A stretch of 64,000 nt of DNA from Candidatus Fimenecus sp. (lineage in GTDB: Bacteria; Bacillota; Clostridia; Oscillospirales; Acutalibacteraceae): the NCBI GenBank assembly GCA_045613585.1, contig JAZLBG010000107.1, forward strand, positions 10,008 to 74,007, read 5' to 3'. Under the pieces are notes generated by a model that saw nothing but the letters and a program-made list of their open reading frames with translations, made no database searches and was not told where the DNA came from. This document shows positions 11,673 to 36,866 of this stretch, piece by piece. Within the stretch, counting starts at the first letter, position 1. Every line of letters begins with the position of its first letter. Position numbers and translations under genes: made by a program.

Positions 11673-11708
11673 TTTGTCACAAATTGACATATTTTTTCGA
11701 TATATAAT
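11673..11708 (+). promoter_or_regulatory. Shared island promoter/operator, copy 1 (TGTCACA-N16-CGAT), upstream of dGTPase-1
   Basis: tttgtcacaaa at 11673-11683 and cgat at 11698-11701, with exactly 16 nt between TGTCACA and CGAT. Confidence 0.6.
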
Positions 11709-11799
11709 TTGATAGGTTCAAAATACATAAATAAAAATTGCTTAAATTAAAAATATTATATCAACTTAAGAATTACTTTATTTAGAAAGGACGTATAAA

Positions 11800-13293
11800 A
11801 TGTTAATATGGAATCAGTTGTTACAACCAAAGAGATTTAGAGAAAAAGAAACTGTAAAAAGGTCTCCTAGTGATAATAGGTCACCATTCAAGAAGGATTT
11901 CGACACAGTTTGTAATAGTACTATATTGCGAAGATTACAGGATAAAGCACAGGTTTTTCCACTTGAGCAAGAGGACTATGCTCGAACAAGATTAACGCAT
12001 TCTATAGAAGTTATGTCAATTGCTGAAAGTTTAGGCGTTCAGATTATAGATACTATTTTAAAAAAAGATTCTAAATTTATATATACATTGGAAGAAGAAA
12101 AGGAAGATGCTGAGAAACTTGTTAAAGAAATTCCATACATATTAAAAACTGCCGCCTTGTTGCATGATATGGGCAATCCTCCATTTGGACATCTAGGTGA
12201 AAAAATTATAGGTGATTGGTTTAAAAACAATTTAGGAAATTTAGCATTCAATTCAGAAAAACAATTGGTTTTTAATTCGTCGGCAGAAGCAAAAGAGACT
12301 TTGGAATTTATGTTTAAAGGGCGCTATGCTGAAGATTTGAAAAATTTTGAAGGGAATGCTCAATTATTCCGTCTTGTAACAAAATTAAGTTTGGTCGTTG
12401 ATGAAAATGGAATGAACTTAACATTCCCTGTTATGGCTTCTTTTATAAAGTATCCAACATCATCTATGGATGTTGATAAAAATAAATTAATGACTAAAAA
12501 AATAGGATATTTTACTGCTGAAAAAGAACTATTTAATACTATAAACACTACATTAGGTCTTGAAAATTATAGACATCCATTAGCTTTTTTGTTGGAAGCA
12601 GCAGATGATATTGCATATTTAACTGCAGATATTGAAGATGCTCATAGAAAAGGATTAATATCTATGGATAAAATTAGAGACTATCTTAATAATGACAAAG
12701 ATGATGCAATCGTATCTACGCTTTTATCTGCCATGGATAATTATATTCAGAAGGCAAATGAAATGAATTATGAAGATGTTGAAGATTATGTAATTCATAG
12801 GTTAAGAGTTCTAATTAAGGGATTAATGATTGATTCTATGAGCAGTGCATTTGAAAACTCCTATGATTTAATTATGAATGGAGAGTTCGAAACGGAATTG
12901 TTAAATGTTTCTTCAGTAAAATGTGTTGCTGATATCCTAAGAAAAATGGAAAAAGAAAATATCTATTACTGTAATAATATTTTAGAAACTAAAACGCGAG
13001 CTAATGCCATTATAAATAAATTACTAGATATATATATTCCAGCAATAGTTAATTGGAACTATGAATGTGATGCAAATACAGACAGTTCCAATAATTTGTT
13101 ATATTTATCTCTTTCAAAAAACTATAGATATATGTGTGAGCTTGCGAACAAGGATTATTACTTAAAAGATAAATTGTTATCATCAGATTTTGAAACGATG
13201 GTCTACAATAAAATTTTATTAGTTACGGACCAAATTTCGGGTATGACAGATACGCATGCTTTAACTGTGTATAAAACCATAATGGCTAATTAA
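11800..13293 (+). CDS. dGTP triphosphohydrolase-family HD-domain protein (Dgt-like)
   Basis: RSPFKKDFD..ILRRL.DKAQVFPL, RLTHSIEV, LLHDMGNPPFGHLGE and a C-terminal GMTDTHA motif are typical of dGTPases. Confidence 0.85.
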   Translation: MLIWNQLLQPKRFREKETVKRSPSDNRSPFKKDFDTVCNSTILRRLQDKAQVFPLEQEDYARTRLTHSIEVMSIAESLGVQIIDTILKKDSKFIYTLEEEKEDAEKLVKEIPYILKTAALLHDMGNPPFGHLGEKIIGDWFKNNLGNLAFNSEKQLVFNSSAEAKETLEFMFKGRYAEDLKNFEGNAQLFRLVTKLSLVVDENGMNLTFPVMASFIKYPTSSMDVDKNKLMTKKIGYFTAEKELFNTINTTLGLENYRHPLAFLLEAADDIAYLTADIEDAHRKGLISMDKIRDYLNNDKDDAIVSTLLSAMDNYIQKANEMNYEDVEDYVIHRLRVLIKGLMIDSMSSAFENSYDLIMNGEFETELLNVSSVKCVADILRKMEKENIYYCNNILETKTRANAIINKLLDIYIPAIVNWNYECDANTDSSNNLLYLSLSKNYRYMCELANKDYYLKDKLLSSDFETMVYNKILLVTDQISGMTDTHALTVYKTIMAN

Positions 13294-13532
13294 CAAACGA
13301 TAAATGAATTTGAATATGTGGAGTTATAGAAATTTGGATAAGTAGTTTTTTATGGAATATGATGTGCAAATACCTTAAACTATATTGTTTAAGATGTTTC
13401 TCAAGTATCGTTGTATGCGGTATAAATTGCATGCATTTGCGATTACTAGGATATCTTCTTGAGATATATGGGTTAAAAATTGAAAAAATTATATTTAATT
13501 GAGAAAAAGTATACAATTATATAGAACAATGA

Positions 13533-13574
13533 ATTAAGCCTTGAGAGTTATCTTTAACTATCAAGGCTTAATTT
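13533..13574. terminator. Conserved bidirectional terminator, family copy 1 (ATTAAGCCTTGAGAGTT...CAAGGCTTAAT)
   Basis: 11-bp stem ttaagccttga/tcaaggcttaa. The arms are identical to the copy at 15611..15650. Confidence 0.7.
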
Positions 13575-13592
13575 TATTCTTTTAACTTGTAT

Positions 13593-14270
13593 TTAGAAAT
13601 AAAATTCTTCATCCGTATTAAGACATAAGATACCTAACTGACCACCAAATCCACAACCGCAATCAATTGCTATTGTATCGTTTTTTCTTAAAATTTTATC
13701 AGGTGTTGCACCGTGTATAAAACGAGTAGGAACATGTCCAACGATAACGATTGTGTCTTCGTAGTGTGTTATGTCATAGTCGTGAGGTCCAAATAGCAAA
13801 TCATTTTCTTCATACCATTCAACAGGAAAATCAGAAAAGTCAGGTAATCCTCCATGAATGAGTAAATAGTTCTGACCATTGACTTCTAACTCTTCATATA
13901 ATGGCAACTCATTTATGAAATCTATAATATCTCGTTGTTTGGATTTATTAAGTTTTGCAAAATCAAACAAAGTTTCTCTTTGCCCAATTCTGTCAATAGC
14001 TAGTGAGTCGTTAATGATACTACAGACTTCTCTTTCTGAGACTGCACCACACAACTCTTCAAGGGTATCAGCCAAAATCTTTTCATGGTTTCCTTTGAGC
14101 ATGATAACATTTGGCCTTTTCATAATGTCTTGTATCAAGTCAATGGCATTTGCACCACGGTCAAGTACATCGCCGATAACATAAAGCGTGTCGTCATCAG
14201 TGAAAATTGAATTTATAAAGTCCAGATATGCGCCATATTCACCGTGGATATCAGAACAAACATATATCAT
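13593..14270 (-). CDS. Calcineurin-like metallophosphoesterase (lambda-phosphatase / PrpE-like)
   Basis: DIHGEY, GDVLDRG, GNHE and GH motifs in the canonical order. Confidence 0.8.
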   Translation of the reverse strand: MIYVCSDIHGEYGAYLDFINSIFTDDDTLYVIGDVLDRGANAIDLIQDIMKRPNVIMLKGNHEKILADTLEELCGAVSEREVCSIINDSLAIDRIGQRETLFDFAKLNKSKQRDIIDFINELPLYEELEVNGQNYLLIHGGLPDFSDFPVEWYEENDLLFGPHDYDITHYEDTIVIVGHVPTRFIHGATPDKILRKNDTIAIDCGCGFGGQLGILCLNTDEEFYF

Positions 14271-14337
14271 AAAATTGTCTCCTAAAATATTGTTGAAGAT
14301 TTAAGATATTCTTAAATTAATTTATTTTTAGAAAGGT

Positions 14338-15093
14338 TTAATTTGTTTTACTAGAATAAAATTGACTCAATAAATCAGTGGCTTTTTTTATTTCTTCAGT
14401 TAAATATTCGCTATTATCCTTAAAAGAATTTAATAGTTTTAATCTTTGATTCCAAAATCTTAAAGCTAAGTTCATATATTTTATTGTTCTTTCTGGACTA
14501 TCTATAGGTAGCTTTCCTGAAATTTTTAAACATTCTACTAAATCACTATCTATTCCGTAAATCACTTTACAATAATCTTCTACACCATCAAATACATCAA
14601 TAAATTCTTTTAAGGAATTATAATTTTCAATAGATGAATAATTTGATAAAAGGAAAATTCCTTTTGTATAGTATAAGTCTAATGCCCAAATAAAGGTATC
14701 TATTCGGTCATTACCTAGTCCTTTTTTTGCACTTTGCAAATTCCCTGTTTGAGGCATAAGCGAAACGTTAACTACTGTGTGCATAAGTTCTTTGCATAAT
14801 TTTAGATTGCTTCGATATAATTCTTGATACGATTTATTGTCTATACTCGATAATAGTTTTTCATATTTTGTTAAATTTGTGTGAGCCCAACCCTTTTTAA
14901 AATTAAAATCCGTTTCTCCACTAAATCTTATTTGACTGGTTTCTTTATTATTGTGTTTCAAATTCCCAACAATAAACTTTCTACGGGTGTTTTTTTCAAA
15001 AACACCCCCATCAAAAGAAATGTAATTAGAGTACATTTTTTTATAAATTTCCCATACCACGTTCGTTACGTCATATTCAATATTATTAGACAT
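14338..15093 (-). CDS. Hypothetical protein (251 aa), first gene of an operon with the metallophosphoesterase
   Basis: ATG 15093 follows an AAAGGAG RBS. 67-nt gap to the next gene on the same strand. No recognisable motif. Confidence 0.6.
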   Translation of the reverse strand: MSNNIEYDVTNVVWEIYKKMYSNYISFDGGVFEKNTRRKFIVGNLKHNNKETSQIRFSGETDFNFKKGWAHTNLTKYEKLLSSIDNKSYQELYRSNLKLCKELMHTVVNVSLMPQTGNLQSAKKGLGNDRIDTFIWALDLYYTKGIFLLSNYSSIENYNSLKEFIDVFDGVEDYCKVIYGIDSDLVECLKISGKLPIDSPERTIKYMNLALRFWNQRLKLLNSFKDNSEYLTEEIKKATDLLSQFYSSKTN

Positions 15094-15147
15094 TTTTATC
15101 TCCTTTACAAAAAAACTCAAACCATGTATTACATCGTTTTCAATTTT

Positions 15148-15206
15148 ATAATATCATATCTAAAATATGCTGTCAAGTTGATTTATGAAGATGTATTTGC
15201 TATAAT
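15148..15206. promoter_or_regulatory. Back-to-back canonical sigma-A promoters
   Basis: - strand: TTGACA (15176-15171), 17 nt, TATTAT (15153-15148). + strand: TTGATT (15178-15183), 17 nt, TATAAT (15201-15206). Confidence 0.6.
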
Positions 15207-15235
15207 AAATAAAACTTTTATTTAGAGGAATAATT

Positions 15236-15604
15236 ATGAAAATTTTATCTATTCGTTTAAGTGATGAAGAATATAAAAAACTTAAATCTCAATGTGAAGG
15301 TGATATAGCTTTATCGACTTACATTAAAAGTATCATTTTCTCCGAAAACAAGAAAAAACTTAATTGCCTTACAAACGCAATAATTATGGGAAAAATTAAT
15401 GAAAAAATTAAAAATGATGATAAGTATAAAAAAGGATATGAATTTGTTTTATCTGATTTGCTTGATGACGAGGAATACTCTTGTTATTACAATTTTATTG
15501 CTGCTGCAAGAGATTTTTTCAAATACGCCTCAACACCAGGTACAGATGCTTACAATACTGTTGACGCTATTGGTGGTAAACCTGCCAAATATAAAATTAA
15601 ATAA
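15236..15604 (+). CDS. Small ribbon-helix-helix-like protein (CopG/MobC-like N-terminus)
   Basis: N-terminal MKILSIRLSDEEYKKLK...STYIKSII fits an RHH beta-alpha-alpha pattern. Confidence 0.4.
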   Translation: MKILSIRLSDEEYKKLKSQCEGDIALSTYIKSIIFSENKKKLNCLTNAIIMGKINEKIKNDDKYKKGYEFVLSDLLDDEEYSCYYNFIAAARDFFKYASTPGTDAYNTVDAIGGKPAKYKIK

Positions 15605-15610
15605 TTACTA

Positions 15611-15650
15611 ATTAAGCCTTGAGAGTTTTAATAACTTTCAAGGCTTAATT
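15611..15650. terminator. Conserved bidirectional terminator, family copy 2
   Basis: attaagccttgagagtt...caaggcttaatt, between convergent genes. Confidence 0.7.
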
Positions 15651-15678
15651 AGTAATTTTATTGAGGGAAAATCTTTCC

Positions 15679-16785
15679 TTATGTTATTGTTATAACTGAA
15701 ATTTCACCTGTATTAGGTTCATATTTCAGTGCGACTGTAGTTTTTCGATATTTTCCGTTAATGGTTGGCAAATCCAAGCATACATTAAACTTTAAAACAT
15801 CTTGGTCGTTCTTATCTAAATTATAAATGTATGAATGACATATTTGTTTATAAATTTTTTTTATAAAAATTTCTTTATCGTGAGTTTCATAGCCTAGTGA
15901 TTTTAATATATTACCTTTACCTTTTTCACAATCTGTAAGGTATTGTGTCCACTTTTTATCTTCAACGAGGAACTTTAGTTTATCTATTGAATCAAATTTT
16001 GGGAAAAGAGCATTGAAAGAGAATCCTATATCTGTTTTATCTGGAATATCTGTTTCGATTTTATAGCTTAAAAATGGTCCAAAGTTTTCTTCATTTATAC
16101 TAATAAGTTTAAAATCATTTTTCTCAAATGGATATCCTAACATATTGATATTTTCTTCATCAGAATAATCCATTGGATGAGCTGCGATAACTTTGTCTTT
16201 ATGTTTTATATATGTATGTGTTAAAATTTGTGAAATATAGCTTTTAAAAGTAGAGGTGTGTGTTAAGTCAGCAAACCCTATAAACCATGGATATTGTAAT
16301 AGGCCTTCTACGATTTCACATCTTTGAGACACAGTTAGTCGGTTGAAATATATAAGATAGTATTGATTACTATGCCGATAATTTGTTTTATTATATTTAG
16401 TTAATACTTCATTCATAATATTTCTTAGAACAAATTGAGAATTTGCAGTGTTTTTAGATATGTCAATGTAATCACCGCACATAATACTGTATGTACTTTT
16501 TTTATCTAGTAGTGGGATGACTTTTTCAAAAATAAAATAGCCATACATATTACTGCTAATTAAAGAAGTATCAAAAATGAAACAAGTTTCAAATTTTTTC
16601 TTGTCTTGATTAGGTATTAGTGCTCCTTTTAGGTCATCGTAAGAGATGCCTTTATTTTCTAATCGTTGTATTAAGTTATTAAACTCTTCCAATATAGTAT
16701 TGTAAATTTCCGTTTCTGAAAGAGAAAAAACTGATTTTGCAACGGGAAATAGTAAATAATCTTTATTGTTAAATGTATAAATCAT
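15679..16785 (-). CDS. Hypothetical protein (368 aa), single-gene module under the shared promoter
   Basis: Long ORF with a GAGGAG RBS. No recognisable motif. Confidence 0.6.
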   Translation of the reverse strand: MIYTFNNKDYLLFPVAKSVFSLSETEIYNTILEEFNNLIQRLENKGISYDDLKGALIPNQDKKKFETCFIFDTSLISSNMYGYFIFEKVIPLLDKKSTYSIMCGDYIDISKNTANSQFVLRNIMNEVLTKYNKTNYRHSNQYYLIYFNRLTVSQRCEIVEGLLQYPWFIGFADLTHTSTFKSYISQILTHTYIKHKDKVIAAHPMDYSDEENINMLGYPFEKNDFKLISINEENFGPFLSYKIETDIPDKTDIGFSFNALFPKFDSIDKLKFLVEDKKWTQYLTDCEKGKGNILKSLGYETHDKEIFIKKIYKQICHSYIYNLDKNDQDVLKFNVCLDLPTINGKYRKTTVALKYEPNTGEISVITIT

Positions 16786-16820
16786 AGCGTTCTTAATATT
16801 CTCCTCAAAAACAAACTTTA

Positions 16821-16856
16821 TAATTTAATCGTTTTTACAATATGTTTTGTGACAAA
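16821..16856 (-). promoter_or_regulatory. Shared island promoter/operator, copy 4
   Basis: On the - strand: tttgtcacaaa (16856-16846), then cgat (16831-16828) with 16-nt spacing. 43 nt to ATG 16785. Confidence 0.6.
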
Positions 16857-16931
16857 AAATGACACTTTTTTATTTTATATATAAATTTACCGTCTTTGAA
16901 TACTTATATACTTTTCATTTCATAGTTTCAA

Positions 16932-17003
16932 TGATATAATATTTCCGTAAACAGCCTTCCTCGATAAAGGAAGAGGGACCGCGTTAGCGGTGGAGGGATT
17001 CAC
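16932..17003 (+). promoter_or_regulatory. Extended -10 promoter (TGATATAAT) plus a GC-rich structured 5' leader ending in the SD
   Basis: TGATATAAT at 16932-16940. Hairpins cttcct/aggaag and ccgc/gcgg, then GGAGGGA 6 nt before ATG 17004. Homologous to 55898..55949 on the - strand. Confidence 0.5.
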
Positions 17004-17759
17004 ATGAACAAAAAACTCAAAATTCTGATTTCAATTATATTGGTAGTTATACTTATATCAGGAGGTTATGTAGGCAATATGTTTGGTGTGTTCAATCGTG
17101 GCAACTATGGTGAGTATTCTCTCAAAAATACCGATACTGTAGAGAATAGCCCAATCAATGGTAAAACCGTCATATTCCTTGGTAGCTCCGTCACTTATGG
17201 CTATGGCTCAATGGGTGTGAGCTTTGCAGATTATCTCGAAAAAACTGACGGAATCCACGCTGTAAAAGAGGCTGTGTCAGGTACAACTCTTGTTGATGTG
17301 AAAGACAATTCTTATGTGTCCCGAATGAAGACAATCGGCAAAGAAATCAAAGCCGATGCAGTTGTATGCCAACTTTCAACCAACGATGCAACCAAAGAAA
17401 TGCCATTTGGAGAAATCAGCGACAGCTACGATATAAACGATTTCGATACCCAGACCATCGCAGGTGCGATTGAGTACATAATCGCATACGCGAAAGATAC
17501 TTGGAATTGCCCCGTGGTGTTCTATACCCAAGCCAAATACGATAGCGACCACTACGCAAAAATGGTAGATTTGCTCCTCGAAATCCAAGACAAATGGCAA
17601 ATCACAATAATAGACTTCTGGAACAATGAAGAAATAAATAGCATCACTGACACCCAACGCAAACTCTACCTCATCGACCACATCCACCCAACCAAAGCAG
17701 GGTATCGCGACTGGTGGCTCCCCACATTCCAACAAACCTTCTATGAAGCAATTGAATAA
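17004..17759 (+). CDS. SGNH/GDSL-family hydrolase with an N-terminal membrane anchor
   Basis: FLGSSVTYG (block I, GDS-like), STNDA, and DHIHPT (block V, DxxH). Visibly higher GC than neighbouring genes. Confidence 0.75.
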   Translation: MNKKLKILISIILVVILISGGYVGNMFGVFNRGNYGEYSLKNTDTVENSPINGKTVIFLGSSVTYGYGSMGVSFADYLEKTDGIHAVKEAVSGTTLVDVKDNSYVSRMKTIGKEIKADAVVCQLSTNDATKEMPFGEISDSYDINDFDTQTIAGAIEYIIAYAKDTWNCPVVFYTQAKYDSDHYAKMVDLLLEIQDKWQITIIDFWNNEEINSITDTQRKLYLIDHIHPTKAGYRDWWLPTFQQTFYEAIE

Positions 17760-17817
17760 ATTGATAAATAAAACACCTGTGAGATGAACATCACCGGTGT
17801 TTTATGTTGCTTCAAAT

Positions 17818-19293
17818 TTAATTTTTTTCAGTATTTTCAGAATCTATAGAATAATCATTTTCTATAACATCTTGAATATAATTAGCAGCAAGTGAATTTA
17901 ATTTTGGATAGTCTAATTTGGGAATATCATATTTTAACATAATACTTTGTGAGAAGTTAGGATAAGATAGTTTTTTGTTTATAAAATCTAAGTGGCTTTG
18001 AACTGTATTAATATATGAAGTGTGCTCTTTTACTAAAGATGTTGCTAAATTCATTTTTTCAAATAATTCTTGCTTTTTTCTTGAATTTTCTACAATCGTC
18101 GCATTTGTTGCCACATTTCCTAATGCGTATATTGCTGTACTCTTTTTAATTGTTTGAGAAAGTGCAGTAAGCGCAGGAGATATTATGGTGGCTGCTTTTT
18201 GTGCCATTTCAGCAATCGATTTTGAAAAATCGGCAAAGCCAGCCAAAACACCCTTGACTGCTTCGGATAAAGCTTTTGCGTTTTTTTCTGCGAAATCTTT
18301 TTCTTCGGTAATTTTAATAGCCTTGATAATGGCTGAATTCAAATGATTGACAAGTTTGTTGCATTCATTATATTCTGATTTATAAAAAAATTTAAAGTGA
18401 GCAACACTGTTTCTATACAAACGAATTTGTTCAATTAAATCTTTTATATTGGGAATATCTATTTTATTACTAAAAAATCGTTCCCAATCGCTTTTTGGAA
18501 TGAATTTTGAAAAAGCCGTTCTTAACTTTTCATCAGATAATTCGGAAAGGTCTTTATGTTCACTTAAAAACTTACTCTTATCATTTTCATCAGCACTTGT
18601 CCAGTTTGAAGTAAAAAGGAGTTTTTGAATATCGTTATATTCAAAAGAATAAAAGAATCTTTGCAATCGCTCAATTTCTTCTGCTTCTTTTTTTGTATTT
18701 GCATTATAATAAGTTTTTATATTATCTTTTTCCTCTTTGTTACTATCAATATTTATAACACCCTTAATTTTACCTTGCAATTCAGAATCAATTGTAATTT
18801 TATAATAGTCTCTTCCAAAATTTACAATATAGATATTGAAAAGTAGTTTTCTTAAATTTCTTTCTAATGTATTAAGTTTCGGGTAAATCTTATTGCAATA
18901 GTATTCCGATATAGCATCGTAGGAGATAATATCAATATATCTTTCACGAACACCAGAGTTAAGGAGCGTATATTGGATATATTCTAAGCATTTAATAAGT
19001 TGGGCTTTAGTTTTCCCATTAACTATAATATCTAGATATTTAGTATCAATAACTTCAGTTATTATAAATTCAACTTTACATACAATATTGCTTTGATATA
19101 TATCAGCAGTATACTTTTTCTTATAAAAATTGTTATTGGTATTTGCTTTAACAATGGTAGGGAACGATGCTTTAATATAACTATATAGATTTTTCCCGGT
19201 AGGCAAGACAATTGTTCCGTTAGCTGGATTGTTATTTGTCTCTTCTTTCCTATATGGATTTTTTAAGAATATGTAACTACTCTGTAATTTCAA
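17818..19293 (-). CDS. HEPN-like (Rx4H) protein, 491 aa
   Basis: IRLYRNSVAHFKF contains R-x4-H in a helical context. TTG start after an AAGGAG RBS. Confidence 0.55.
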   Translation of the reverse strand: MKLQSSYIFLKNPYRKEETNNNPANGTIVLPTGKNLYSYIKASFPTIVKANTNNNFYKKKYTADIYQSNIVCKVEFIITEVIDTKYLDIIVNGKTKAQLIKCLEYIQYTLLNSGVRERYIDIISYDAISEYYCNKIYPKLNTLERNLRKLLFNIYIVNFGRDYYKITIDSELQGKIKGVINIDSNKEEKDNIKTYYNANTKKEAEEIERLQRFFYSFEYNDIQKLLFTSNWTSADENDKSKFLSEHKDLSELSDEKLRTAFSKFIPKSDWERFFSNKIDIPNIKDLIEQIRLYRNSVAHFKFFYKSEYNECNKLVNHLNSAIIKAIKITEEKDFAEKNAKALSEAVKGVLAGFADFSKSIAEMAQKAATIISPALTALSQTIKKSTAIYALGNVATNATIVENSRKKQELFEKMNLATSLVKEHTSYINTVQSHLDFINKKLSYPNFSQSIMLKYDIPKLDYPKLNSLAANYIQDVIENDYSIDSENTEKN

Positions 19294-19326
19294 TTTCTAA
19301 TCTCCTTAAATTAAATAATTGTTCAT

Positions 19327-19362
19327 AATATTAATCGTTGTTTGAGTAGGTTTTGTGGCAAA
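19327..19362 (-). promoter_or_regulatory. Shared island promoter/operator, copy 5 (one mismatch: TGCCACA)
   Basis: On the - strand: tttgccacaaa (19362-19352), then cgat (19337-19334) with 16-nt spacing. 41 nt to the start at 19293. Confidence 0.55.
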
Positions 19363-19369
19363 ATCAAAA

Positions 19370-19900
19370 TTACAATCTATTTTCGTAAGCATCACAAATC
19401 TCTTCAATTGAATCTACAGTGTGACCGCAATTTCTACGATATGCTATATGTAATCTTGTAGCTTGGATAGCTTTCTTTAATCCGTTGCTACCATATTCGT
19501 CAAAAATTGTATCATAATACTTTTTCATTGCTTTAGCACTTATTGCACGTTTATAAATTGTACCTTCTAACATTCCTTGTACAGCATACAAATACATTAC
19601 CGCAGAGTTTCTGTTCATTCCTGTGGAATCGGCAATGTCATCAGCCAATTCCTGAACGCTTTCACCACAAACAACTTGCTTTCCGGATTTGTAGCAAATA
19701 TCAATCATTTCATCTGTCATTTTTTTGTAAGGAACTGTTGGTTCCGTTTGTGTGTTGTAGCTATCTTCTTCATTACTTGTTTCATCATTGTAAGTTTGAA
19801 TGTTGATAGTGCGAATTTGAGCTTGTTTCAACTCTGCTACTTCATCTTCTAATTTTTTGATTCGGGATAAGAGTTCTAAAATAATGGTTTCGTACTGCAT
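19370..19900 (-). CDS. Hypothetical protein (176 aa) with an N-terminal coiled coil
   Basis: ATG 19900 follows a GAAAGGATG-type RBS. No recognisable motif. Confidence 0.55.
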   Translation of the reverse strand: MQYETIILELLSRIKKLEDEVAELKQAQIRTINIQTYNDETSNEEDSYNTQTEPTVPYKKMTDEMIDICYKSGKQVVCGESVQELADDIADSTGMNRNSAVMYLYAVQGMLEGTIYKRAISAKAMKKYYDTIFDEYGSNGLKKAIQATRLHIAYRRNCGHTVDSIEEICDAYENRL

Positions 19901-19933
19901 AATTTACATCCTTTCTAAATACACTTTTTTGAT

Positions 19934-20029
19934 TAGAAATATTTCTATTTCATCTGTCAATGCTTATTATATACAATTCTACAATGAAAGTCAATAGAAA
20001 ATTATAAAAACGTTATAGAAAAATTTCTA
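19934..20029. promoter_or_regulatory. Two TAGAAA-NN-TTTCTA palindromic operators in a divergent intergenic region
   Basis: tagaaatatttcta at 19934-19947 (perfect 14-bp palindrome) and tagaaaaatttcta at 20016-20029. Extra half-sites at 19995 and 20035. Confidence 0.5.
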
Positions 20030-20130
20030 ATGAATTTCTATAAGACATAATTGAAAAACGTTTAATCAATCGATAGTGAAAAAATCAAAAGTAATGTCCA
20101 TTAAAATGTACTTATTGATACTCTCATTCA

Positions 20131-20159
20131 TTGACACAATGTACCCATAGTGTTAAAAT
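20131..20159 (+). promoter_or_regulatory. Canonical sigma-A promoter of the macro-domain operon
   Basis: TTGACA (20131-20136), 17 nt, TAAAAT (20154-20159). Confidence 0.6.
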
Positions 20160-20188
20160 TTAGTTAGTACAATTATAGGAGGGGCGTT

Positions 20189-21268
20189 ATGCCACTTAAG
20201 ATTATTCGACAAGACATAACCAAAATTGAATGTGATGCTATTGTAAATCCGTCCAACCGTCATTTGTACCCAGGTGGGGGAGCAGACCTTTCAATTCACG
20301 AGGCAGCGGGTCCCGAGTTGCTCGCATATTGTGAAAAACTTGGTGGATGTGAGGTTGGCAAGGCTAAAATCACACCTGCATTCAAATTACCTTGCAAGTA
20401 TGTTATCCATACTGCAGGGCCTAATTGGCATCGCCTTGAAAATGCCGAAGAAGTGCTTGCATCTTGCTATAAAGAGTGCTTGAATCTTGCCAAAGAGAAC
20501 AATTGTGAAACTGTTGCATTTCCATTGATTGCATCAGGTGCTTACGGATTCCCTAAGCAGTCCGTATTAAAGATTGCAACAAGCGTAATCAGTGATTTCT
20601 TGTTCGAGAATGAAATGCTCGTGTATCTTGTGGTTTTCGATAAGAATGCTTTTGAAATCAGTGAAAAGCTGTTTTGTGATGTTGCATCATATATCGACGA
20701 TAACTATGTTGAGCAGAATGCCGAGCATCAGATTGTAGAGGGTAGATATAGCAATTATCCTATGCAGTCATTACGCAGAGAAGAACTCGAAGAGCGTCGT
20801 GAAAGAGTCCTTGAAGAACGAGCAGCAAAGCAAATGATTTGCGAATGCGAGTCAGTTTGTCTTAATATGGAAGAACAGGATGAATTCATTAAATCTGACG
20901 ATATTGACGATTGGCTCAAACGAATGGACAAGGGCTTTGCGGATACACTTTTCTACTATATCGATAAGAAAGAGATTACAGATGTTGAGGCATACAAACG
21001 CTCAAATGTAAGCAAAAAGACCTTCTCAAAAATCAAGTGTAATCCTGATTACAAGCCAAGCAAATTGACTGCAGTGTCCTTCGCAATCGGGCTCAAGCTC
21101 AACCTTGACGAAACAAATCACTTACTCAAAACAGCAGGATTTGCCCTTTCAGAATGTAGCAGATTCGATGTAATCATCCAGTATTTCATCGAAACAGGGG
21201 AATACAAAAACATCTTTGATGTAAACGCAGTATTATACAAATTCGACCAACAGTTGTTAGGGGTGTAG
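20189..21268 (+). CDS. MacroD-type macro domain protein with a C-terminal HTH-like domain
   Basis: DAIVNPSN..L.PGGGADLSIHEAAG, YVIHTAGP and AFPLIASGAYGFP are macro-domain hallmarks. The C-terminus has an XRE-like segment (EAYKRSNVSKKTFSKIK). Confidence 0.85.
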   Translation: MPLKIIRQDITKIECDAIVNPSNRHLYPGGGADLSIHEAAGPELLAYCEKLGGCEVGKAKITPAFKLPCKYVIHTAGPNWHRLENAEEVLASCYKECLNLAKENNCETVAFPLIASGAYGFPKQSVLKIATSVISDFLFENEMLVYLVVFDKNAFEISEKLFCDVASYIDDNYVEQNAEHQIVEGRYSNYPMQSLRREELEERRERVLEERAAKQMICECESVCLNMEEQDEFIKSDDIDDWLKRMDKGFADTLFYYIDKKEITDVEAYKRSNVSKKTFSKIKCNPDYKPSKLTAVSFAIGLKLNLDETNHLLKTAGFALSECSRFDVIIQYFIETGEYKNIFDVNAVLYKFDQQLLGV

Positions 21269-21278
21269 GAGGATATTT

Positions 21279-21746: not shown

Positions 21747-21807
21747 AAGTTTTTCATAAAAAGTAGGGGACGATGCCCACATCGTTCCGTAAAAAAGGAG
21801 AATTAGT

Positions 21808-22305: not shown

Positions 22306-22317
22306 ATAACTCGTTAT

Positions 22318-22372: not shown

Positions 22373-22385
22373 GGAGGAATTTACA

Positions 22386-23149: not shown

Positions 23150-23185
23150 TTTGTCACAAATTATCATTAAATTTCGATATAGTAT
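23150..23185 (+). promoter_or_regulatory. Shared island promoter/operator, copy 2, upstream of the dGTPase-RT operon
   Basis: tttgtcacaaa at 23150-23160 and cgat at 23175-23178, 16-nt spacing. 42 nt to ATG 23220. Confidence 0.6.
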
Positions 23186-23219
23186 TTAATAGGAAAGTAA
23201 AAAGATGGAGGAACTTATT

Positions 23220-24455
23220 ATGGCAAAACCAAAATTTTCAAGTTGTGCGGCTACAAGTAAAAATCCGAATTGGGAAAAATTAATAGAAAGACCTGGGGAA
23301 CTGTATTCACGAGAAGATGAAATACGTAGTCCTTTTGCAAGAGATTATACACGAATTCTCCATTGTATGGCATATAGACGACTCAAGCATAAAACTCAAG
23401 TATTCTTCAACATTGACAATGACCACATTTGCACACGAATGGAACATGTTAGTCATGTGGAATCAGTAAGTACAACAATAGCAAAGTATTTAGGATTAAA
23501 TGAAGAATTGACCAAAGCAATTGCGATGGGACACGATTTGGGCCATGCTCCTTTTGGTCATGAAGGAGAAAGAATATTAAGAAACCTTTCTAAAAAGCAT
23601 TTAAATACAGATTTTTGGCACGAGCAAAACGGGTTGCATTTTGTTGATGAAATAGAGCTGCTTGAAGATAACTATAAACACTATAAAAATCTTAATTTAA
23701 CTTATGCGGTAAGAGATGGAATAATTTCACATTGCGGAGAGATTGACCAAAACGGTATCATTCCTAGAGAAATTTCAATTGATATAAATGCTTTCGATGA
23801 AGCTGGTAAATATCAGGCGGTTACTTGGGAAGGTTGCATAGTAAAACTTGCAGATAAAATTGCATATGTTGGTAGAGATATTGAAGATGCAATTAATTTG
23901 GGACTTCTAGACCAACCTGCTAAAAACAAATTACTTAAAATGGCTCAGGCAAACGATGAAAGTGTAATGAATACAACTGTAATAATGCATAATATGATTA
24001 TTGATATTTGCAAAAATAGTTCTCCTGATAAAGGTATTTGTATGAGCCAAGAGTTTAATGAGCAATTAAATGAAATAAAAATGTTTAATTATGAATATAT
24101 TTATGGCCATGAAAGATTAGAACCATTTAAAAAATATTCAGAGTTGATTATCACTCAAATATTTAATTCATTATTATGCCTTTATGATAAAAAACATACT
24201 TGGGGAAAACTTAGCGAAAGAAAGAAATATACACCAATTTTGATTGATTCATTTGAAAAATGGTTAGCACGCTATTGCGAATCAGATATTGTTCCATCAG
24301 GAGAGTTACAAGAACTTTCTTTGAATTGTGAAAATATAAAAATTTACAAAAAACTTGGAAGTAAAAAGTTGTATGTTCAAGCAATTATTGATTATATTTC
24401 GGGAATGACAGATAGATTTGCTATTAAAGTATTTAATGAGTTACTAGAGTATTAA
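23220..24455 (+). CDS. dGTPase-like HD-domain dNTP triphosphohydrolase (short form)
   Basis: SPFARDYTRILH..AYRRLKHKTQVF, RMEHVSHV, GHDLGHAPFGHEGE and a C-terminal SGMTDRFA. ATG 23220 follows a GGAGGA RBS. Confidence 0.85.
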   Translation: MAKPKFSSCAATSKNPNWEKLIERPGELYSREDEIRSPFARDYTRILHCMAYRRLKHKTQVFFNIDNDHICTRMEHVSHVESVSTTIAKYLGLNEELTKAIAMGHDLGHAPFGHEGERILRNLSKKHLNTDFWHEQNGLHFVDEIELLEDNYKHYKNLNLTYAVRDGIISHCGEIDQNGIIPREISIDINAFDEAGKYQAVTWEGCIVKLADKIAYVGRDIEDAINLGLLDQPAKNKLLKMAQANDESVMNTTVIMHNMIIDICKNSSPDKGICMSQEFNEQLNEIKMFNYEYIYGHERLEPFKKYSELIITQIFNSLLCLYDKKHTWGKLSERKKYTPILIDSFEKWLARYCESDIVPSGELQELSLNCENIKIYKKLGSKKLYVQAIIDYISGMTDRFAIKVFNELLEY

Positions 24456-24467
24456 TGGAGAGTTGAT

Positions 24468-26060
24468 ATGGGCATAAAAAAACTTGATAAAAAGAACTTC
24501 ATTTTTCAAATTTCACAATATGGTTTTTTTACAGAACAATTTCCCGAATGTTTTAATAGTGAAAGCTTTGCAAGAGCATTAGACGACTTGATTTCACTAG
24601 TAGCAAGTTCAAAAGGGCAAGCGAAAAAAGGAAATAGGAATACAACATCACCAACAACATTATCTACATATAAAAACGATATATCTAGAAGAGTGCTGTC
24701 AGTGCCAAATCCCGAGGCCTTTTTGAGATTAGCAAAATTTATGCAAGAACATTGGAATGAAATCAACGAATATGCTTATAGTTCAAACTCTTTGTCCCCA
24801 ATTACATTTGTTAGAGTTTATGCACAAGGTGAAGCTGAGGAGTTACTTAATAGTGAATCACTTAGAGAACGCTTTAAAATTAGAAGTGATTTTGTTGTTA
24901 GTATCAAAAATTGTATTCGTGCATCTCTTGGGTATAAGTATAGATTGAGTGTAGATATTTCTAATTGTTATAACTCGCTATATACACATTCTGTTACATG
25001 GGCTATTTGCGGAAAAGATAAGGCAAAGGAATATTTAAGAACCAAATCTCCAGCTGAAATTCAAAGAGATTATGAAATAGCAGATTGTATAGATGCTTTT
25101 ACAAGATTTCAAAAAAACAATGAAACTAATGGTATAATTGTGGGCCCGTATACTTCAAGGATTGTATCAGAAATAGTTTTAGCTCGAATAGATAAAGAAC
25201 TGAAACAAAAAGGGTTACACTTCAAACGTTATGTTGATGATTATAAAATGTATTTTAGAACTGAGTCACAAGCTCAAGAAAGCTTACCGATTATAGAGAA
25301 GGTATTAAACGAATATAATTTATCGCTAAATACCTCGAAAACAGTAATACAAAAATACCCTTATGAAATTATTTTGAATCTTAAAGACTCTTTTGAAAAA
25401 GCTTTTATTGAGGAGGGCGTGTTCGGTGTTTTAAATATGGCTGCGACACTGTTTTCTTCCGGTGAAAAGGGTGCATATAAATATGCTTTAAAATATATCA
25501 AAGATATGACCTTAACTGGTGAAGATATCTATTTGATTATCCCAACATTGATTAACATTATGTTAATTGACCCCAGATATGGTAAATATGTAACGCAGTA
25601 TTTGAAAAAGAATTTATCTTACAGAGAAAAAGAAAAACTGACAAATGTTTTCAATAATGAATTGACAAGTAGCATTGATGGCCAGTTGCAGCAGGAAACA
25701 CTTTTATTTATTCAGCTAATTAAAGATTTGAATTTAAAAATTCAAGGTAGTAATGTTGTTAAAATATTGAAAAGTGATAATGATTTTGCCATTATAATAG
25801 CCCTTGATTTGTGGAAAAATAGTAAAGAATTAGTTATTAGAACAAAGACTGAAGCGCGAGAGATAAATAAAGCTATTGATTGGTTATTGTTAAAATTAAA
25901 TGGTGAAAAATTATCTGGTTCTAGATGGTTGCTATTATATGAAATGAGTGTAAATAAGCTAGTTAGTTCTAAAAAAATGCCAACTATTGAAATGGATGAT
26001 TTCTTCAGTAAAATGTTTGATTTAAAAGTAAGTTTTTATAATTCAAACAAAAAGAATTAA
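24468..26060 (+). CDS. Reverse transcriptase (UG/Abi-like, non-retron) with a ~250-aa helical C-terminal extension
   Basis: RT motifs in order: RVLSVPNPEAF, VDISNCYNSLYTHS (A), GIIVGPYTSRIVSEIVL (B), KRYVDDYKMY (C, YVDD), LSLNTSKT. A GGAG RBS sits in the 12-nt gap after the HD gene. Confidence 0.8.
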   Translation: MGIKKLDKKNFIFQISQYGFFTEQFPECFNSESFARALDDLISLVASSKGQAKKGNRNTTSPTTLSTYKNDISRRVLSVPNPEAFLRLAKFMQEHWNEINEYAYSSNSLSPITFVRVYAQGEAEELLNSESLRERFKIRSDFVVSIKNCIRASLGYKYRLSVDISNCYNSLYTHSVTWAICGKDKAKEYLRTKSPAEIQRDYEIADCIDAFTRFQKNNETNGIIVGPYTSRIVSEIVLARIDKELKQKGLHFKRYVDDYKMYFRTESQAQESLPIIEKVLNEYNLSLNTSKTVIQKYPYEIILNLKDSFEKAFIEEGVFGVLNMAATLFSSGEKGAYKYALKYIKDMTLTGEDIYLIIPTLINIMLIDPRYGKYVTQYLKKNLSYREKEKLTNVFNNELTSSIDGQLQQETLLFIQLIKDLNLKIQGSNVVKILKSDNDFAIIIALDLWKNSKELVIRTKTEAREINKAIDWLLLKLNGEKLSGSRWLLLYEMSVNKLVSSKKMPTIEMDDFFSKMFDLKVSFYNSNKKN

Positions 26061-26126: not shown

Positions 26127-26153
26127 GTAGTGTATATTATTTTAACAGGACGA

Positions 26154-27032: not shown

Positions 27033-27195
27033 AATAAAAAGCAGACAGTGATTTAATTCTATGATATAATATATTTAAACAAGAAAAATGCTGAAATCTC
27101 AATATTTTTTTGGAAATAAGTTGAGAAAAGTAATTTATTGTGATATAATTTCACTAATGTTTATGAAAAATTATATTAATCATAGGGGTGTAATC

Positions 27196-27405: not shown

Positions 27406-27472
27406 CAAAGATATTTTCAGGACAATAATTTAGAGTTTAGATTACAGATATTTGTGCGGAGGATTACCTAAA

Positions 27473-29890: not shown

Positions 29891-29907
29891 AAAAAGAGGT
29901 GAGTTAG

Positions 29908-32583: not shown

Positions 32584-32598
32584 CAACTGGTGATTTTT

Positions 32599-33903: not shown

Positions 33904-33987
33904 CTAATAGTAGATGAAACCTACATTGAAATCAAAATGTTTGCTAATTGGAAATAAATGCAGAGTACTGCAATAAGGTGCAATGAT

Positions 33988-34401
33988 ATGATTAAAGACA
34001 TAATTTATGACCCGATTTTGTTGGCGATGAAATCGGAAAAGGCTACAATTGAAGATTTGCAGGTGGCAGAAGATTTGCTTGACACTCTCACTGCCAATGC
34101 TGATGGTTGTGTTGGTATGGCAGCTAATATGATTGGTGTACATAAGCGTATCATTTGCTTCGATGATAACGGTAAGTATATGACTATGTTCAACCCCGAA
34201 GTCATTAGAAAGTCAGACCCTTATGAAACCGAAGAAGGTTGCCTTTCATTGCTTGGTGTTCCCCGTAAGTGTAAGCGTTATAAGAGTATAAAAGTGCAGT
34301 GGCAGACAGCTGAATTCCAGACCCGAATCAAAACATTCACCGGATGGACAGCACAAATCATTCAGCATGAAATTGACCATTGTGATGGTATCTTAATTTA
34401 A
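33988..34401 (+). CDS. def: Peptide deformylase
   Basis: GVGMAANMIG, EGCLS and HEIDH motifs. Confidence 0.85.
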   Translation: MIKDIIYDPILLAMKSEKATIEDLQVAEDLLDTLTANADGCVGMAANMIGVHKRIICFDDNGKYMTMFNPEVIRKSDPYETEEGCLSLLGVPRKCKRYKSIKVQWQTAEFQTRIKTFTGWTAQIIQHEIDHCDGILI

Positions 34402-34411
34402 TGGTGATGCT

Positions 34412-34861
34412 ATGAAAATTATAATTGATGCTGATGCGTGTCCCGTTGTGGATATTACTGTCAATGTGGCAAAAGAGCGTGGACTTGAGTGTATCATTGT
34501 TTGCGACAATACCCACACCATTGAAAGGGATGGCGCTACAACTATAGTTGTTGATAAGGGTGCTGATTCTGCCGATTGTCGTATTGCTAATATCACCGAA
34601 AAGGGTGATGTGGTTGTTACGCAGGATTACGGACTTGCAGCTCTCGTGCTTGGCAAGGGCGGTAAGGCACTTAATCAGAATGGACTCATTTACACCGATA
34701 GCAATATAGAAAATCTCCTTTTCACCCGTTTTATAGGCAAAAAGGAGCGTATGGCAGGTAACAGGACAAAGGGTCCTAAAAAGAGAACATCACAAAACAA
34801 TGCAGATTTTTTAAAAGCATTGTTAATATGCCTTGACCATTGTGATGGTATATTGATTTGA
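34412..34861 (+). CDS. YaiI/YqxD (DUF188, UPF0178) family protein with a chimeric C-terminus
   Basis: MKIIIDADACPV... N-terminus is typical of DUF188. The last 9 codons (DHCDGILI*) copy the end of def. Confidence 0.7.
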   Translation: MKIIIDADACPVVDITVNVAKERGLECIIVCDNTHTIERDGATTIVVDKGADSADCRIANITEKGDVVVTQDYGLAALVLGKGGKALNQNGLIYTDSNIENLLFTRFIGKKERMAGNRTKGPKKRTSQNNADFLKALLICLDHCDGILI

Positions 34862-34901
34862 TAGATGTTTGTTTGTGTTCGAAAAAATTAAGGAGTGAAA
34901 G

Positions 34902-36605
34902 ATGATGGATAATCACAACAATCCTGCGGTTGTTATAAAATCAATTACATTTAATGATGGTAGTGAAATTGAATTTAATAGTGACGACATAGTATTATTG
35001 GTTGGAGCCAATAATGTCGGTAAAAGCCGTACTTTGAAAGATTTACAAGCAGATTTAATTGATAATGAAAATTCAAGAGTATTAATAAAAAAAGTTGACT
35101 ATCATACCAGTAATTTTGCTACAGAACCAATAAAGAATTTCTTTGAAAGAAATATTCGTAAAAATATTCATGGTGACTATGTCGTTCCTGTGAATGATAA
35201 TTGCACCCATCAATTCAGTGAATTTGATTTTGAGAATGTTTTAGACGGTGATAAGCGCTTCTACAAAGTTTTGTATTCATTTTTGTCAACAGAAAGTCGA
35301 TTGAATATAACAAAACCAATTAGCTTTAATTATGGTGTTGATAAAACATGTTCAAACATATTAAATAAACTAGAAGAGCACCAAGAAATAATAGAGACAC
35401 TAAACGAAATATTGTCATCAGCATTTGGGAAGGCTATTGATGTGTATGAACGTTCTGATGATGATGTCATTGTAAAAGAATATAAAATTGGCGATGGCAA
35501 ATTAATTACTGATGCAATTAATTCAAACAGACGAGAGGGGAAAAGAATACTGAAAGAACTGGATAGCCTACATCACCAAGGTGATGGTATAAGAAGTGCA
35601 GTTGCTATCTTAGCTTCTCTTATTGTTAACGAACATTCATTGCTTTTGATTGACGAACCGGAAACTTTTTTACATCCACCTCAAGCGAAACTGATTGGAA
35701 AAAACATTGTGCAATTATCAGAGAATAAACAATGTTTTATTGCTACACACAATATTGATTTCATTAAAGGTGTTGTAGAAGCAAATTCTTCTAGAGTAAA
35801 AATAATAAAGATTAATAGATATGAAAATGAAAATACTTTTAATTTAATTAAAAACAACAGCATTATTGAAATTGCAAACGATAAGAACTTAAAATATACA
35901 AACATTCTGGATGGTTTATTTTATAATCGTTTGGTGTTGTGTGAAAATGAAAGTGATTGCAAATTTTATGCCTCATTATTGGAAAATATGGATTTATCCA
36001 AGTATCAAAGTACGCTATTTTGTGCAGTTGGAGGTAAAGACCAGTTCAAAAAAGTAATACCTTTGCTAAGAGAACTGCGTATAGATTATTTGATTATTGC
36101 TGATATAGACTTAATCGATAATAAAGAGAATTTAAAACAATTAATGAATTCCATAGTAACAGATGGATATGAGCAAATACGTAAAAAGCATAATGATTTT
36201 TTGGAAAAATTTGAAGAAGGAACAAATTCTCAAGTTAAAATTCAATGTGATATACAAAAAGAAATTAACGAGGCTTTCACAGATGAAAGATATATCTCAC
36301 CGGAAACTGTTGATAAGATAAAATCGATATTAAAGAATATTAGTTCTTTAAAATTATTGAAAAGGGGCGGAAAAAACATTTTGCCTCAAGGAGATTGTAC
36401 AGCACTATTTAATGAGATTAATAATTACCTACATGAGCATAATGTTTTTATTGTAGAATGTGGAGAAATTGAACGGTTTGTGCCAAACGTAGGTGGACAT
36501 GGAAATAATTGGTTAGAGAAGGTATTTGAAAAGTATAGGGATATTGACGATAATGTTTACAATGACGCAAAACAGTTTGTTAAGGTAATCTTTAAAATTG
36601 ATTGA
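34902..36605 (+). CDS. OLD-family / PARIS-like fused ABC-ATPase plus TOPRIM protein
   Basis: Walker A GANNVGKS, Walker B LLLIDEPETFLHP, H-loop ATHN. TOPRIM-like CENESD ... IIADIDL. Confidence 0.75.
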   Translation: MMDNHNNPAVVIKSITFNDGSEIEFNSDDIVLLVGANNVGKSRTLKDLQADLIDNENSRVLIKKVDYHTSNFATEPIKNFFERNIRKNIHGDYVVPVNDNCTHQFSEFDFENVLDGDKRFYKVLYSFLSTESRLNITKPISFNYGVDKTCSNILNKLEEHQEIIETLNEILSSAFGKAIDVYERSDDDVIVKEYKIGDGKLITDAINSNRREGKRILKELDSLHHQGDGIRSAVAILASLIVNEHSLLLIDEPETFLHPPQAKLIGKNIVQLSENKQCFIATHNIDFIKGVVEANSSRVKIIKINRYENENTFNLIKNNSIIEIANDKNLKYTNILDGLFYNRLVLCENESDCKFYASLLENMDLSKYQSTLFCAVGGKDQFKKVIPLLRELRIDYLIIADIDLIDNKENLKQLMNSIVTDGYEQIRKKHNDFLEKFEEGTNSQVKIQCDIQKEINEAFTDERYISPETVDKIKSILKNISSLKLLKRGGKNILPQGDCTALFNEINNYLHEHNVFIVECGEIERFVPNVGGHGNNWLEKVFEKYRDIDDNVYNDAKQFVKVIFKID

Positions 36606-36615
36606 ATCAACAAGT

Positions 36616-36659
36616 AAAAACACCTATGAGGTTATAAAATTAACTTCATAGGTGTTTTT
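36616..36659 (+). terminator. Rho-independent terminator
   Basis: Stem aaaaacacctatga/tcataggtgttttt. Confidence 0.7.
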
Positions 36660-36830
36660 ATATTGCGCTTGATGCTTTTGACTTGTAGGATTTATGCTCC
36701 CATAATATGAATTTTCTAAAGTTATTATAAGAACTCACTTTCAGGGGATGTAATATGTTTTCCTAAAAAAGAAAAGTTAGTTGTTTTCATTTATGTTTAT
36801 AAGAAAAGAATATATAGAATTTTGCAGATT

Positions 36831-36866
36831 TTTGTCACAAAATATTACTTTTAAACGATGTAAATA
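36831..36866 (+). promoter_or_regulatory. Shared island promoter/operator, copy 3
   Basis: tttgtcacaaa at 36831-36841 and cgat at 36856-36859, 16-nt spacing. 44 nt to ATG 36903. Confidence 0.6.

Follow-up and report, generated by a model that had tools for sequence, protein, structure and literature searches.

The question raised by this locus is which form of RNA polymerase reads a short two-block element, TGTCACA-N16-CGAT, that stands upstream of five cargo modules in a genomic island of Candidatus Fimenecus sp. (Bacillota; Clostridia; Oscillospirales; Acutalibacteraceae). The island lies in the window, by which we mean the whole 64,000-nucleotide (nt) stretch of DNA that was analyzed (GenBank assembly GCA_045613585.1, contig JAZLBG010000107.1, positions 10,008 to 74,007, forward strand), and coordinates without further label refer to the window. 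Most of the regulators described so far that silence defence systems and switch them on adjoin the system that they control. We propose, with a probability of about 0.75, that the five elements are promoters of an alternative sigma factor of the extracytoplasmic function (ECF) type, and that the cognate sigma factor belongs to a family of gut Clostridia that is encoded together with DUF4367 membrane proteins.

Five copies of a two-block element in the island

A pattern search recovered the five elements where the initial annotation of this DNA had placed them, on the same strands. The predicted promoters and the modules behind them are as follows.

11667..11708, plus strand: promoter 1, with -35 block TGTCACA at 11675-11681, CGAT at 11698-11701, TATAAT at 11703-11708, and a T-run
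11800..13293, plus strand: dGTPase-like HD phosphohydrolase of 497 amino acids (aa) behind promoter 1 (Pfam HD and HD_assoc; PADLOC dGTPase, 1.7e-65)
16821..16856, minus strand: promoter 2, with TGTCACA at 16854-16848 and CGAT at 16831-16828; start codon at 16785
15679..16785, minus strand: 368-aa protein without a family match, behind promoter 2
19327..19362, minus strand: promoter 3, with the variant -35 block TGCCACA at 19360-19354 and CGAT at 19337-19334; TTG start at 19293
17818..19293, minus strand: 491-aa protein with a weak Swt1-like HEPN match, behind promoter 3 (Pfam HEPN_Swt1, E=0.0015, under the curated cut-off)
23150..23185, plus strand: promoter 4, with TGTCACA at 23152-23158 and CGAT at 23175-23178
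23205..26060, plus strand: two-gene operon behind promoter 4
23205 or 23220 to 24455, plus strand: dGTPase-like HD protein, first gene of that operon (Pfam HD and HD_assoc; PADLOC dGTPase, 5e-55)
24468-26060, plus strand: UG30/DRT-type reverse transcriptase, second gene of that operon (Pfam RVT_1; PADLOC RT_UG30, 3.7e-182)
36831..36866, plus strand: promoter 5, with TGTCACA at 36833-36839 and CGAT at 36856-36859
36867..38452, plus strand: 318/330-aa protein (likely start 36903) and 195-aa multi-pass membrane protein, behind promoter 5

All five copies are intergenic and have the orientation of the next gene. With up to one mismatch allowed, TGTCACA-N16-CGAT gives 5 matches in the window against 0.83 expected, a number that was reached in 1 of 100 shuffles; the longer form TTTGTCACAAA-N14-CGAT gives four exact matches, against 0.00 expected and none in 100 shuffles, and one further match with a single mismatch. 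The initial annotation had left the frequency of the motif elsewhere in this genome to be checked, and the host DNA of the window (~29 kb) was found to hold no copy. A position-weight scan of 315 kb, comprising the window and the related loci described below, returned no intermediate scores except for one weak match.

The geometry reported initially is present throughout the set, with exactly 16 nt between TGTCACA and CGAT, a T-run 5' of each core, and an A/T-rich hexamer (TAnnnT/A) that begins 0 to 1 nt past CGAT. The distance from the end of CGAT to the likely start codon is 41 to 44 nt at four of the five sites, as had been noted, and 99 nt at site 1. The 16-nt spacing holds at every site in the window, on the related islands, and at the sigma factor loci, and it is the two blocks that are conserved and not the spacer between them.

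Two parts of the initial description are narrowed by these comparisons. The five modules had been called unrelated, which does not apply to sites 1 and 4; these are not independent, since the dGTPase genes behind them are paralogues and the sites themselves are 80% identical over 46 nt (repeat families D2 and D4). The modules had also been called defence modules, and this label fits the three genes behind the motif with defence profile matches, namely those for both dGTPases and for the UG30-type reverse transcriptase. The HEPN match is weak, and no family in Pfam, NCBIfam, or PADLOC was matched by the 368-aa, 318/330-aa, or 195-aa protein.

A sigma factor family that carries the motif at its own gene

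A complete scan of a metagenome collection with the pattern TTTTGTCACAAA-N12-WWCGATWWW returned 39 stretches, many of which are chance matches in coding sequence. Intergenic, gene-oriented copies were found on AT-rich contigs (L159, L161, L162, L172, L177, L179, and L183), some of them with two or three. In L183, the motif lies ~25 nt upstream of the open reading frame (ORF) of a 189-aa ECF sigma factor (Sigma70_r2, 1.9e-12; r4_2; Sigma70_ECF), which scores 79.5 bits with the NCBIfam model sigma70-ECF against a cut-off of 42.9. The end of this ORF is overlapped by the gene of a DUF4367 transmembrane protein, which is followed by a second copy of the motif. The sigma factor has 228 homologues of 171 to 208 aa, one of which is named from an Acutalibacteraceae metagenome-assembled genome (MAG). 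Genomic context was fetched for six homologues, which together with L183 gives seven lineages (L183, L191, L192, L195, L198, L200, and L203).

A sigma factor gene paired with a DUF4367 gene was found in all seven lineages, and the sigma factors associated with the motif are 171 to 189 aa long. The sequence T[G/A]TCACAAAA-N14-[G/C]GAT stands directly upstream of the sigma gene in six of the seven, the -35 block at that place being degenerate in L203, and T[G/A]TCACAAAA-N14-[G/C/A]GAT stands just after the DUF4367 partner gene in every one. These loci (11 to 20 kb each) hold two to three motif copies and almost no further matches. The bases past the tetramer also agree: the sigma genes have GGATATAGTATA, and site 4 of the window has CGATATAGTATT. 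In five lineages (L191, L192, L195, L198, and L200, at positions 9966, 9965, 9965, 7992, and 9966, respectively), the ATG of the sigma gene lies only 11 to 12 nt past GGAT, in the form GGATATAGTATA(T)ATG, which suggests that the sigma mRNA is leaderless or nearly so.

The DUF4367 partner is a single-pass membrane protein with the DUF4367 domain on the extracytoplasmic side, and it is regarded here as a putative anti-sigma factor. The nearest solved relatives of the sigma family are Bacillus subtilis SigW (PDB 5WUQ, E=1.4e-09) and Mycobacterium tuberculosis SigL, not SigJ; within NCBIfam the family passes only the superfamily-level model, and the SigJ and SigX4 models score far under their cut-offs. 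A search of one literature library found no account of this sigma family, of DUF4367 anti-sigma factors, or of the motif in Clostridia, and a phmmer search with a Bacteroidetes ECF sigma factor as probe missed the sigma/DUF4367 family.

Next to the pair lie genes for small proteins of unknown function, an operon for an ABC-type ATPase, or RHS toxin genes. RHS toxin genes stand behind the motif both at the chromosomal sigma locus L191 and on the island relatives L134 and L146, which may loosely tie the two kinds of locus together. In L199 to L202 (~7880-20500), the sigma/DUF4367 pair adjoins a tyrosine integrase gene and a DUF6809 gene, with an ABC-type operon and genes for dCMP deaminase and DCD coming next; the switch itself can therefore sit on mobile, defence-carrying DNA. 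Not every copy has such surroundings. In L172, a plus-strand copy at 1721 lies between the acetolactate synthase and ketol-acid reductoisomerase genes, 5' of the gene of a 232-aa membrane-anchored protein, and this seemingly plain chromosomal context indicates that the regulon extends beyond mobile elements. In L159 (3802 minus, 3821 plus) and L162 (2046 minus, 2065 plus), two copies stand back to back, ~19 bp apart, facing the gene of a 96- to 99-aa membrane protein in one direction and that of a 168- to 169-aa LytTR-domain protein in the other. Beyond the divergent pair, L162 carries a dGTPase-like gene and a radical SAM gene.

Viral contigs were searched as well. The sigma-family search found a single distant relative. 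Among the matches listed in a first motif scan (15 specified bases), most come from one oversampled conserved coding sequence and from a repeat in a 135-kb phage, and a stricter scan gave 9 matches, all seemingly chance matches in coding sequence. There is thus no detectable use of the motif by the phages in that collection. The phage in question (IMGVR_UViG_638275816_000001; L073, L080, L094, and L102) has at least 8 copies of a ~60-nt repeat beginning ATGAGATCATACTTGTTTGTCACAAAAGGATGAGATCATCCGATGACTAATTT, which matches the pattern by chance and is unrelated.

The motif on related elements

An exact look-up of the stand-alone Spo0A_C protein encoded on the island returned no record, and homologues with 70 to 90% identity were used to reach related elements. 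These were found in metagenome assemblies and MAGs, including a Candidatus Fimenecus MAG and uncultured Clostridia of goat and yak caecum. On six elements the motif stands upstream of differing cargo, giving 14 clear CGAT-type sites that have both blocks, again 16 nt apart, among which the -35 variants TGCCACA, CGTCACA, and TATCACA occur. The cargo behind the motif on the relatives is as follows.

L001: 1040-aa metallophosphatase, dGTPase orthologue, and one further gene
L134 and L146: RHS toxin
L147: GTPase
L149: DUF2971 protein

An all-against-all comparison of the motif-bearing islands found no common gene beyond the backbone.

Proposed control of the island modules by an ECF sigma factor

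A motif at the sigma gene and again after the partner gene is the pattern to be expected of an autoregulated ECF sigma factor, and for this reason the island motif is assigned to that promoter class; the sigma/DUF4367 family appears to control its own synthesis. ECF-type promoters consist of two short blocks separated by an unconserved spacer of constant length, ~16 to 17 nt, and the elements described here, with 16 nt, conform to this. An ECF-type promoter was one of two explanations offered in the initial annotation, and the copies before six of the seven sigma genes and after all seven DUF4367 genes argue in its favor.

In the mechanism that we propose, domain 4 of the sigma factor would recognize T(G/A)TCACAA(A), the -35 block, and domain 2 would recognize the -10 block, CGAT with the w-w-A that follows, so that the invariant spacing would result from each domain reading one block. 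The sigma factor would be held at the membrane by the DUF4367 protein until an extracytoplasmic signal frees it, and the freed factor would then transcribe its own operon and every such promoter in the cell, those of the island included. The island modules would thus stay silent until a sigma factor whose gene lies elsewhere in the cell is set free from its anti-sigma factor, upon which all five would be expressed together; a single co-regulated set is plausible on these grounds. We infer that a sigma factor of this family is present in the source cell and reads the motif, with transcription predicted to start ~6 to 10 nt past CGAT, and that the inducing signal is probably envelope-related because of the anti-sigma architecture.

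Control would have to be exerted in trans, as no such sigma factor is encoded in the window. Neither a sigma factor nor another regulator of this kind was detected in the island (Pfam, NCBIfam, and PADLOC on all island ORFs, and a profile of the sigma family), and no sigma factor was detected in the flanking host part (~20 of its ORFs searched with Pfam, and every ORF of 60 aa or more with the sigma-family profile).

Several observations weigh against this assignment. The sigma family is missing not only from the 64-kb window but from every island relative that was fetched. The DUF4367 proteins contain no detected anti-sigma domain, and their role is read from position and topology only. All island sites have CGAT, whereas GGAT is found in five of the seven sigma lineages, L183 alone having CGAT and L203 having GGAT and AGAT. 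The first base of the -10 block is therefore variable, since all three forms occur, and the split possibly reflects a lineage-specific preference or a dedicated paralogue. Finally, the TAnnnT/A hexamer directly past CGAT at nearly all sites resembles the -10 hexamer of a sigma-A promoter, a resemblance on which the first two alternatives below draw.

Alternatives based on sigma-A

The elements could be ordinary sigma-A promoters in which the conserved blocks form the operator of some other repressor or activator, of the host or of the element, that overlaps the -35 region. A -10-like hexamer follows CGAT at nearly all sites, and the consensus sequence of the core forms a short palindrome. The initial annotation had singled out this 11-bp palindrome, but it does not behave as a selected feature, the symmetry being broken in the window and its relatives by the natural variants TGCCACA, TTCGTCACAAG, and TATCACAAA without compensating changes. 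The only -35-like hexamer at the sites, TTGTCA, lies 22 to 23 bp from the -10 hexamer, and an acceptable -35 at 16 to 18 bp is absent; none of the sites has the canonical arrangement of a TTGACA-like -35, a 16- to 18-bp spacer, and a TATAAT-like -10. The motif sites are not among the best 60 of 115 sigma-70-type matches in the island, in which other operons match at 10 to 11 of 12 positions. Such near-consensus sigma-A promoters were located at 20131-20159, 15176-15148, 15178-15206, and 27121-27149, in keeping with the earlier remark that canonical promoters exist elsewhere in the island. Moreover, a pair of blocks with constant spacing that directly precedes the genes of a single sigma family is the mark of sigma autoregulation and not of a shared operator, and we regard an operator as unlikely.

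The other explanation offered initially was an activator-dependent sigma-A promoter of the spoIIG type, in which the receiver-less Spo0A_C protein encoded at 10007-10348 would bind TTTGTCACAAA as a variant 0A box and reposition sigma-A RNA polymerase. The spoIIG promoter has a 22-bp spacer. The -35-like hexamer at the island sites likewise lies ~22 bp from the -10-like hexamer, TTTGTC is common to the motif and the 0A box, and a TAnnnT hexamer follows CGAT. The protein encoded at 10007-10348 is a genuine homologue of Spo0A_C, a distance of 1.3 kb separates its gene from site 1, and the isolated DNA-binding domain of Spo0A is active alone (PMC3485338). The bases that Spo0A contacts are G2, C4, and G5 of TGTCGAA (PMC3485338), but A stands in place of G5 at every site and, in the TATCACA variants, in place of G2 as well; conservation is highest at CAC, which falls partly outside the shared TGTC, and the invariant CGAT would be left without a role.

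The distribution of the motif is also at odds with a Spo0A_C regulator. The recognition helix, SRTERAIRYAIE, is near-invariant in the family (the window copy reads PRTERAIRYAIE), though L007, L135, L136, L148, and L150 are without the motif within ~10 kb; in L007 and L136, a repeated near-consensus sigma-A promoter is found before successive cargo genes instead. Conversely, the sigma loci (11 to 20 kb) hold two to three motif copies and no Spo0A_C gene. Given that motif and gene occur without each other, and that the G5 contact base is missing, this explanation is very unlikely.

The receiver-less Spo0A_C protein is itself a fixed backbone gene of the element family (homologues P0001-P0016), and might interfere with host sporulation control. 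The repeated promoter has the form TAAAATAGTTGA-N..-TATAAT and is found in L007 (11397, 11913, 12511, 13901, 14525, and 17143 on the minus strand) and L136 (8476 and 9432), where the ECF motif does not occur. It stands upstream of five or six successive cargo genes, and the same sequence precedes a host melibiase gene at 45549 of the window. It looks like the local form of a strong sigma-A promoter.

Promoter and gene as one cassette

The dGTPase module behind site 1 has a homologous counterpart in L001, where it occupies a different location. The homology between the two begins at 11667, the first base of the promoter element, and stops at the stop codon, and the conserved backbone of the element ends at ~11660, immediately before site 1. 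Since the homologous stretch is bounded in this way and the module is placed elsewhere in L001, promoter and gene behave as one cassette. Whether the motif moves with homologous cargo was a check proposed in the initial annotation, and in the case of L001 the dGTPase module does carry its promoter along.

The same boundaries would be expected if the element were primarily a junction for the recombinational exchange of cargo cassettes, with its promoter-like appearance secondary. However, any module with a promoter of its own would give the same homology boundary, and the orientation toward the gene, the fixed distance to the start codon, and the presence at chromosomal sigma genes fit a promoter; the symmetry of a recombinase site is absent. 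A mere junction is accordingly a remote prospect. Short conserved promoter sequences are known to flank variable genes and to coincide with module boundaries in the PeSL elements of T4-type phages. Those are found in phage genomes and combine an early sigma-70 promoter with a stem-loop, in contrast to the alternative-sigma promoter on an integrative element proposed here.

Comparison with known ECF systems

The promoters of ECF41 sigma factors, established by start-site mapping and reporter assays, read TGTCACA-N16-CGTC/TGTT, with TGTT in Bacillus licheniformis (Wecke et al. 2012; PMC3426412). The likeness to the elements described here extends from the -35 heptamer and the 16-nt spacing, which agrees with the 16 ± 1 nt characteristic of the group, to the placement of the motif upstream of the sigma factor's own operon, and the B. 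licheniformis ydfG promoter begins with TGTCACAAA (PMC3426412). A true ECF41 sigma factor of the host could thus be supposed to read the island promoters, as the heptamer and the spacing are identical. ECF41 sigma factors, however, carry a regulatory extension fused to the C terminus and lack a separate anti-sigma factor, and a single target has been reported for them, a neighbouring gene for a carboxymuconolactone decarboxylase, oxidoreductase, or epimerase (COE) (PMC3426412). The sigma factors associated with the motif are short, lack the extension, and are paired with a membrane protein; their nearest solved relatives do not include SigJ; the -10 block is CGAT or GGAT, with AGAT also at sigma loci, and neither CGTC nor TGTT; the promoters precede many targets, on mobile DNA; and the neighbours of the sigma genes do not include a COE gene. 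An ECF41 sigma factor as the reader is therefore extremely improbable.

Other candidates were compared by eye with their consensus sequences and set aside: Rex, CRP/FNR, CtsR, TnrA, cre, and LytTR direct repeats for want of a second half-site or repeat, and SigD, SigH/ComX, SigK/E, and SigI, which have 'CGA/CAT'-like -10 sequences, since none fits both blocks.

The promoter consensus of B. subtilis SigW is TGAAAC-N16-CGTATA. The sigma/DUF4367 family resembles SigW, its nearest solved relative, in the N16 geometry, in the A/T-rich extension of the -10 block (CGTATA compared with CGATATA), and in having a membrane-bound anti-sigma partner or, here, a putative one. The two differ in the -35 block, which has AAAC in SigW promoters and TCAC here, and in the partner, which is RsiW for SigW and a DUF4367 protein here.

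The closest precedent for the regulation that we propose is the ECF sigma/anti-sigma pair DdvS/DdvA of Myxococcus xanthus, in which four promoters, P1 to P4, each precede a different system of a CBASS/CRISPR-Cas defence island (PMC11506125). The belief expressed in the initial annotation that such a defence regulon had not been described is therefore mistaken. There, one ECF sigma factor drives all of these promoters. Among the genes behind the five promoters here, three have defence profile matches and the others weak ones or none, and dependence on a single ECF sigma factor is inferred. The sigma and anti-sigma genes of Myxococcus lie inside a chromosomal island, whereas the present island is an integrative element without a sigma gene, its promoter travels along with individual cassettes between elements and hosts, and the sigma family is an uncharacterised one.

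Possible significance of a mobile promoter

The island appears to connect its cargo to a stress-signalling switch for which it has no genes of its own. If so, expression of the cargo would be host-dependent and coordinated, and unrelated systems acquired at different times would respond together. The sigma/DUF4367 family, which is common among gut Clostridia, would also gain a target promoter and a first list of target genes. Control of a defence island by an ECF sigma factor has a precedent, and what would be new here is a sigma factor outside the island, an integrative element as the carrier, a promoter borne on the cassettes, and an uncharacterised sigma family.

A broader picture can be offered only tentatively. 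Defence and toxin cassettes of gut Clostridia may carry a portable ECF promoter, so that any mobile element landing in a cell with the sigma/DUF4367 pair would at once have its cargo wired to one danger signal without a regulator of its own. The promoter might then double as the junction at which cassettes are swapped, and the regulon would be defined by a mobile promoter, across several kinds of element and several host lineages.

Architecture of the island and minor observations

The island (about 6471-41303) is an integrative element of ~34.8 kb in tRNA-Trp, as follows from a 46-nt repeat that copies the 5' half of the tRNA gene and from the tyrosine integrase and excisionase-like ORF at its right end. 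The relevant features are as follows.

6434..6479, no strand: left copy of the 46-nt att-like direct repeat, overlapping the 5' half of tRNA-Trp (6399-6474, minus strand)
41267..41312, no strand: right copy of the direct repeat, at the right end of the element
39881..41116, minus strand: tyrosine integrase (Pfam Phage_integrase, 4.8e-26)
39666-39884, plus strand: small excisionase-like helix-turn-helix ORF (read from the ORF translation)
10007..10348, plus strand: stand-alone Spo0A C-terminal domain protein of the conserved backbone (Pfam Spo0A_C, 6.9e-18; matches PDB 1FC3 and 1LQ1)

The copies of the direct repeat (repeat family D1) are 91% identical, with the mismatches at the last positions. 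Insertion has taken place at the 5' side of tRNA-Trp, compared with the usual 3' side. At the left end of the island, the conserved backbone comprises 409-aa and 498-aa proteins without a family match, the Spo0A_C protein, and a BspA-type leucine-rich repeat protein. PDB sequence searches with the 409-aa and 498-aa proteins gave no result, and roles for them in replication and mobilisation are guesses. The remaining cargo includes a macro-domain operon, a methyltransferase with McrBC, an OLD-type ATPase, and several unknowns.

The leader of the GDSL lipase gene (16941-17003, with the gene starting at 17004) is G+C-rich and contains the paired stretches CCTTCCTCGATAAAGGAAG and GGGACCGCGTTAGCGGTGGAGGG after a TG-extended -10; it has no Rfam match, and the sequence differs in L001 and L147. 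A repeated hairpin with AATTAAGCCTTGAGAGTT is located between convergent cargo genes at 13511-13549 and 15589-15627. At the second location, a terminator-like hairpin spans 15607-15653, beyond the gene of the 368-aa protein (15679..16785). The AATTAAGCCTTGAGAGTT hairpin looks like a bidirectional terminator, and a related hairpin stands upstream of the GDSL gene in L001.

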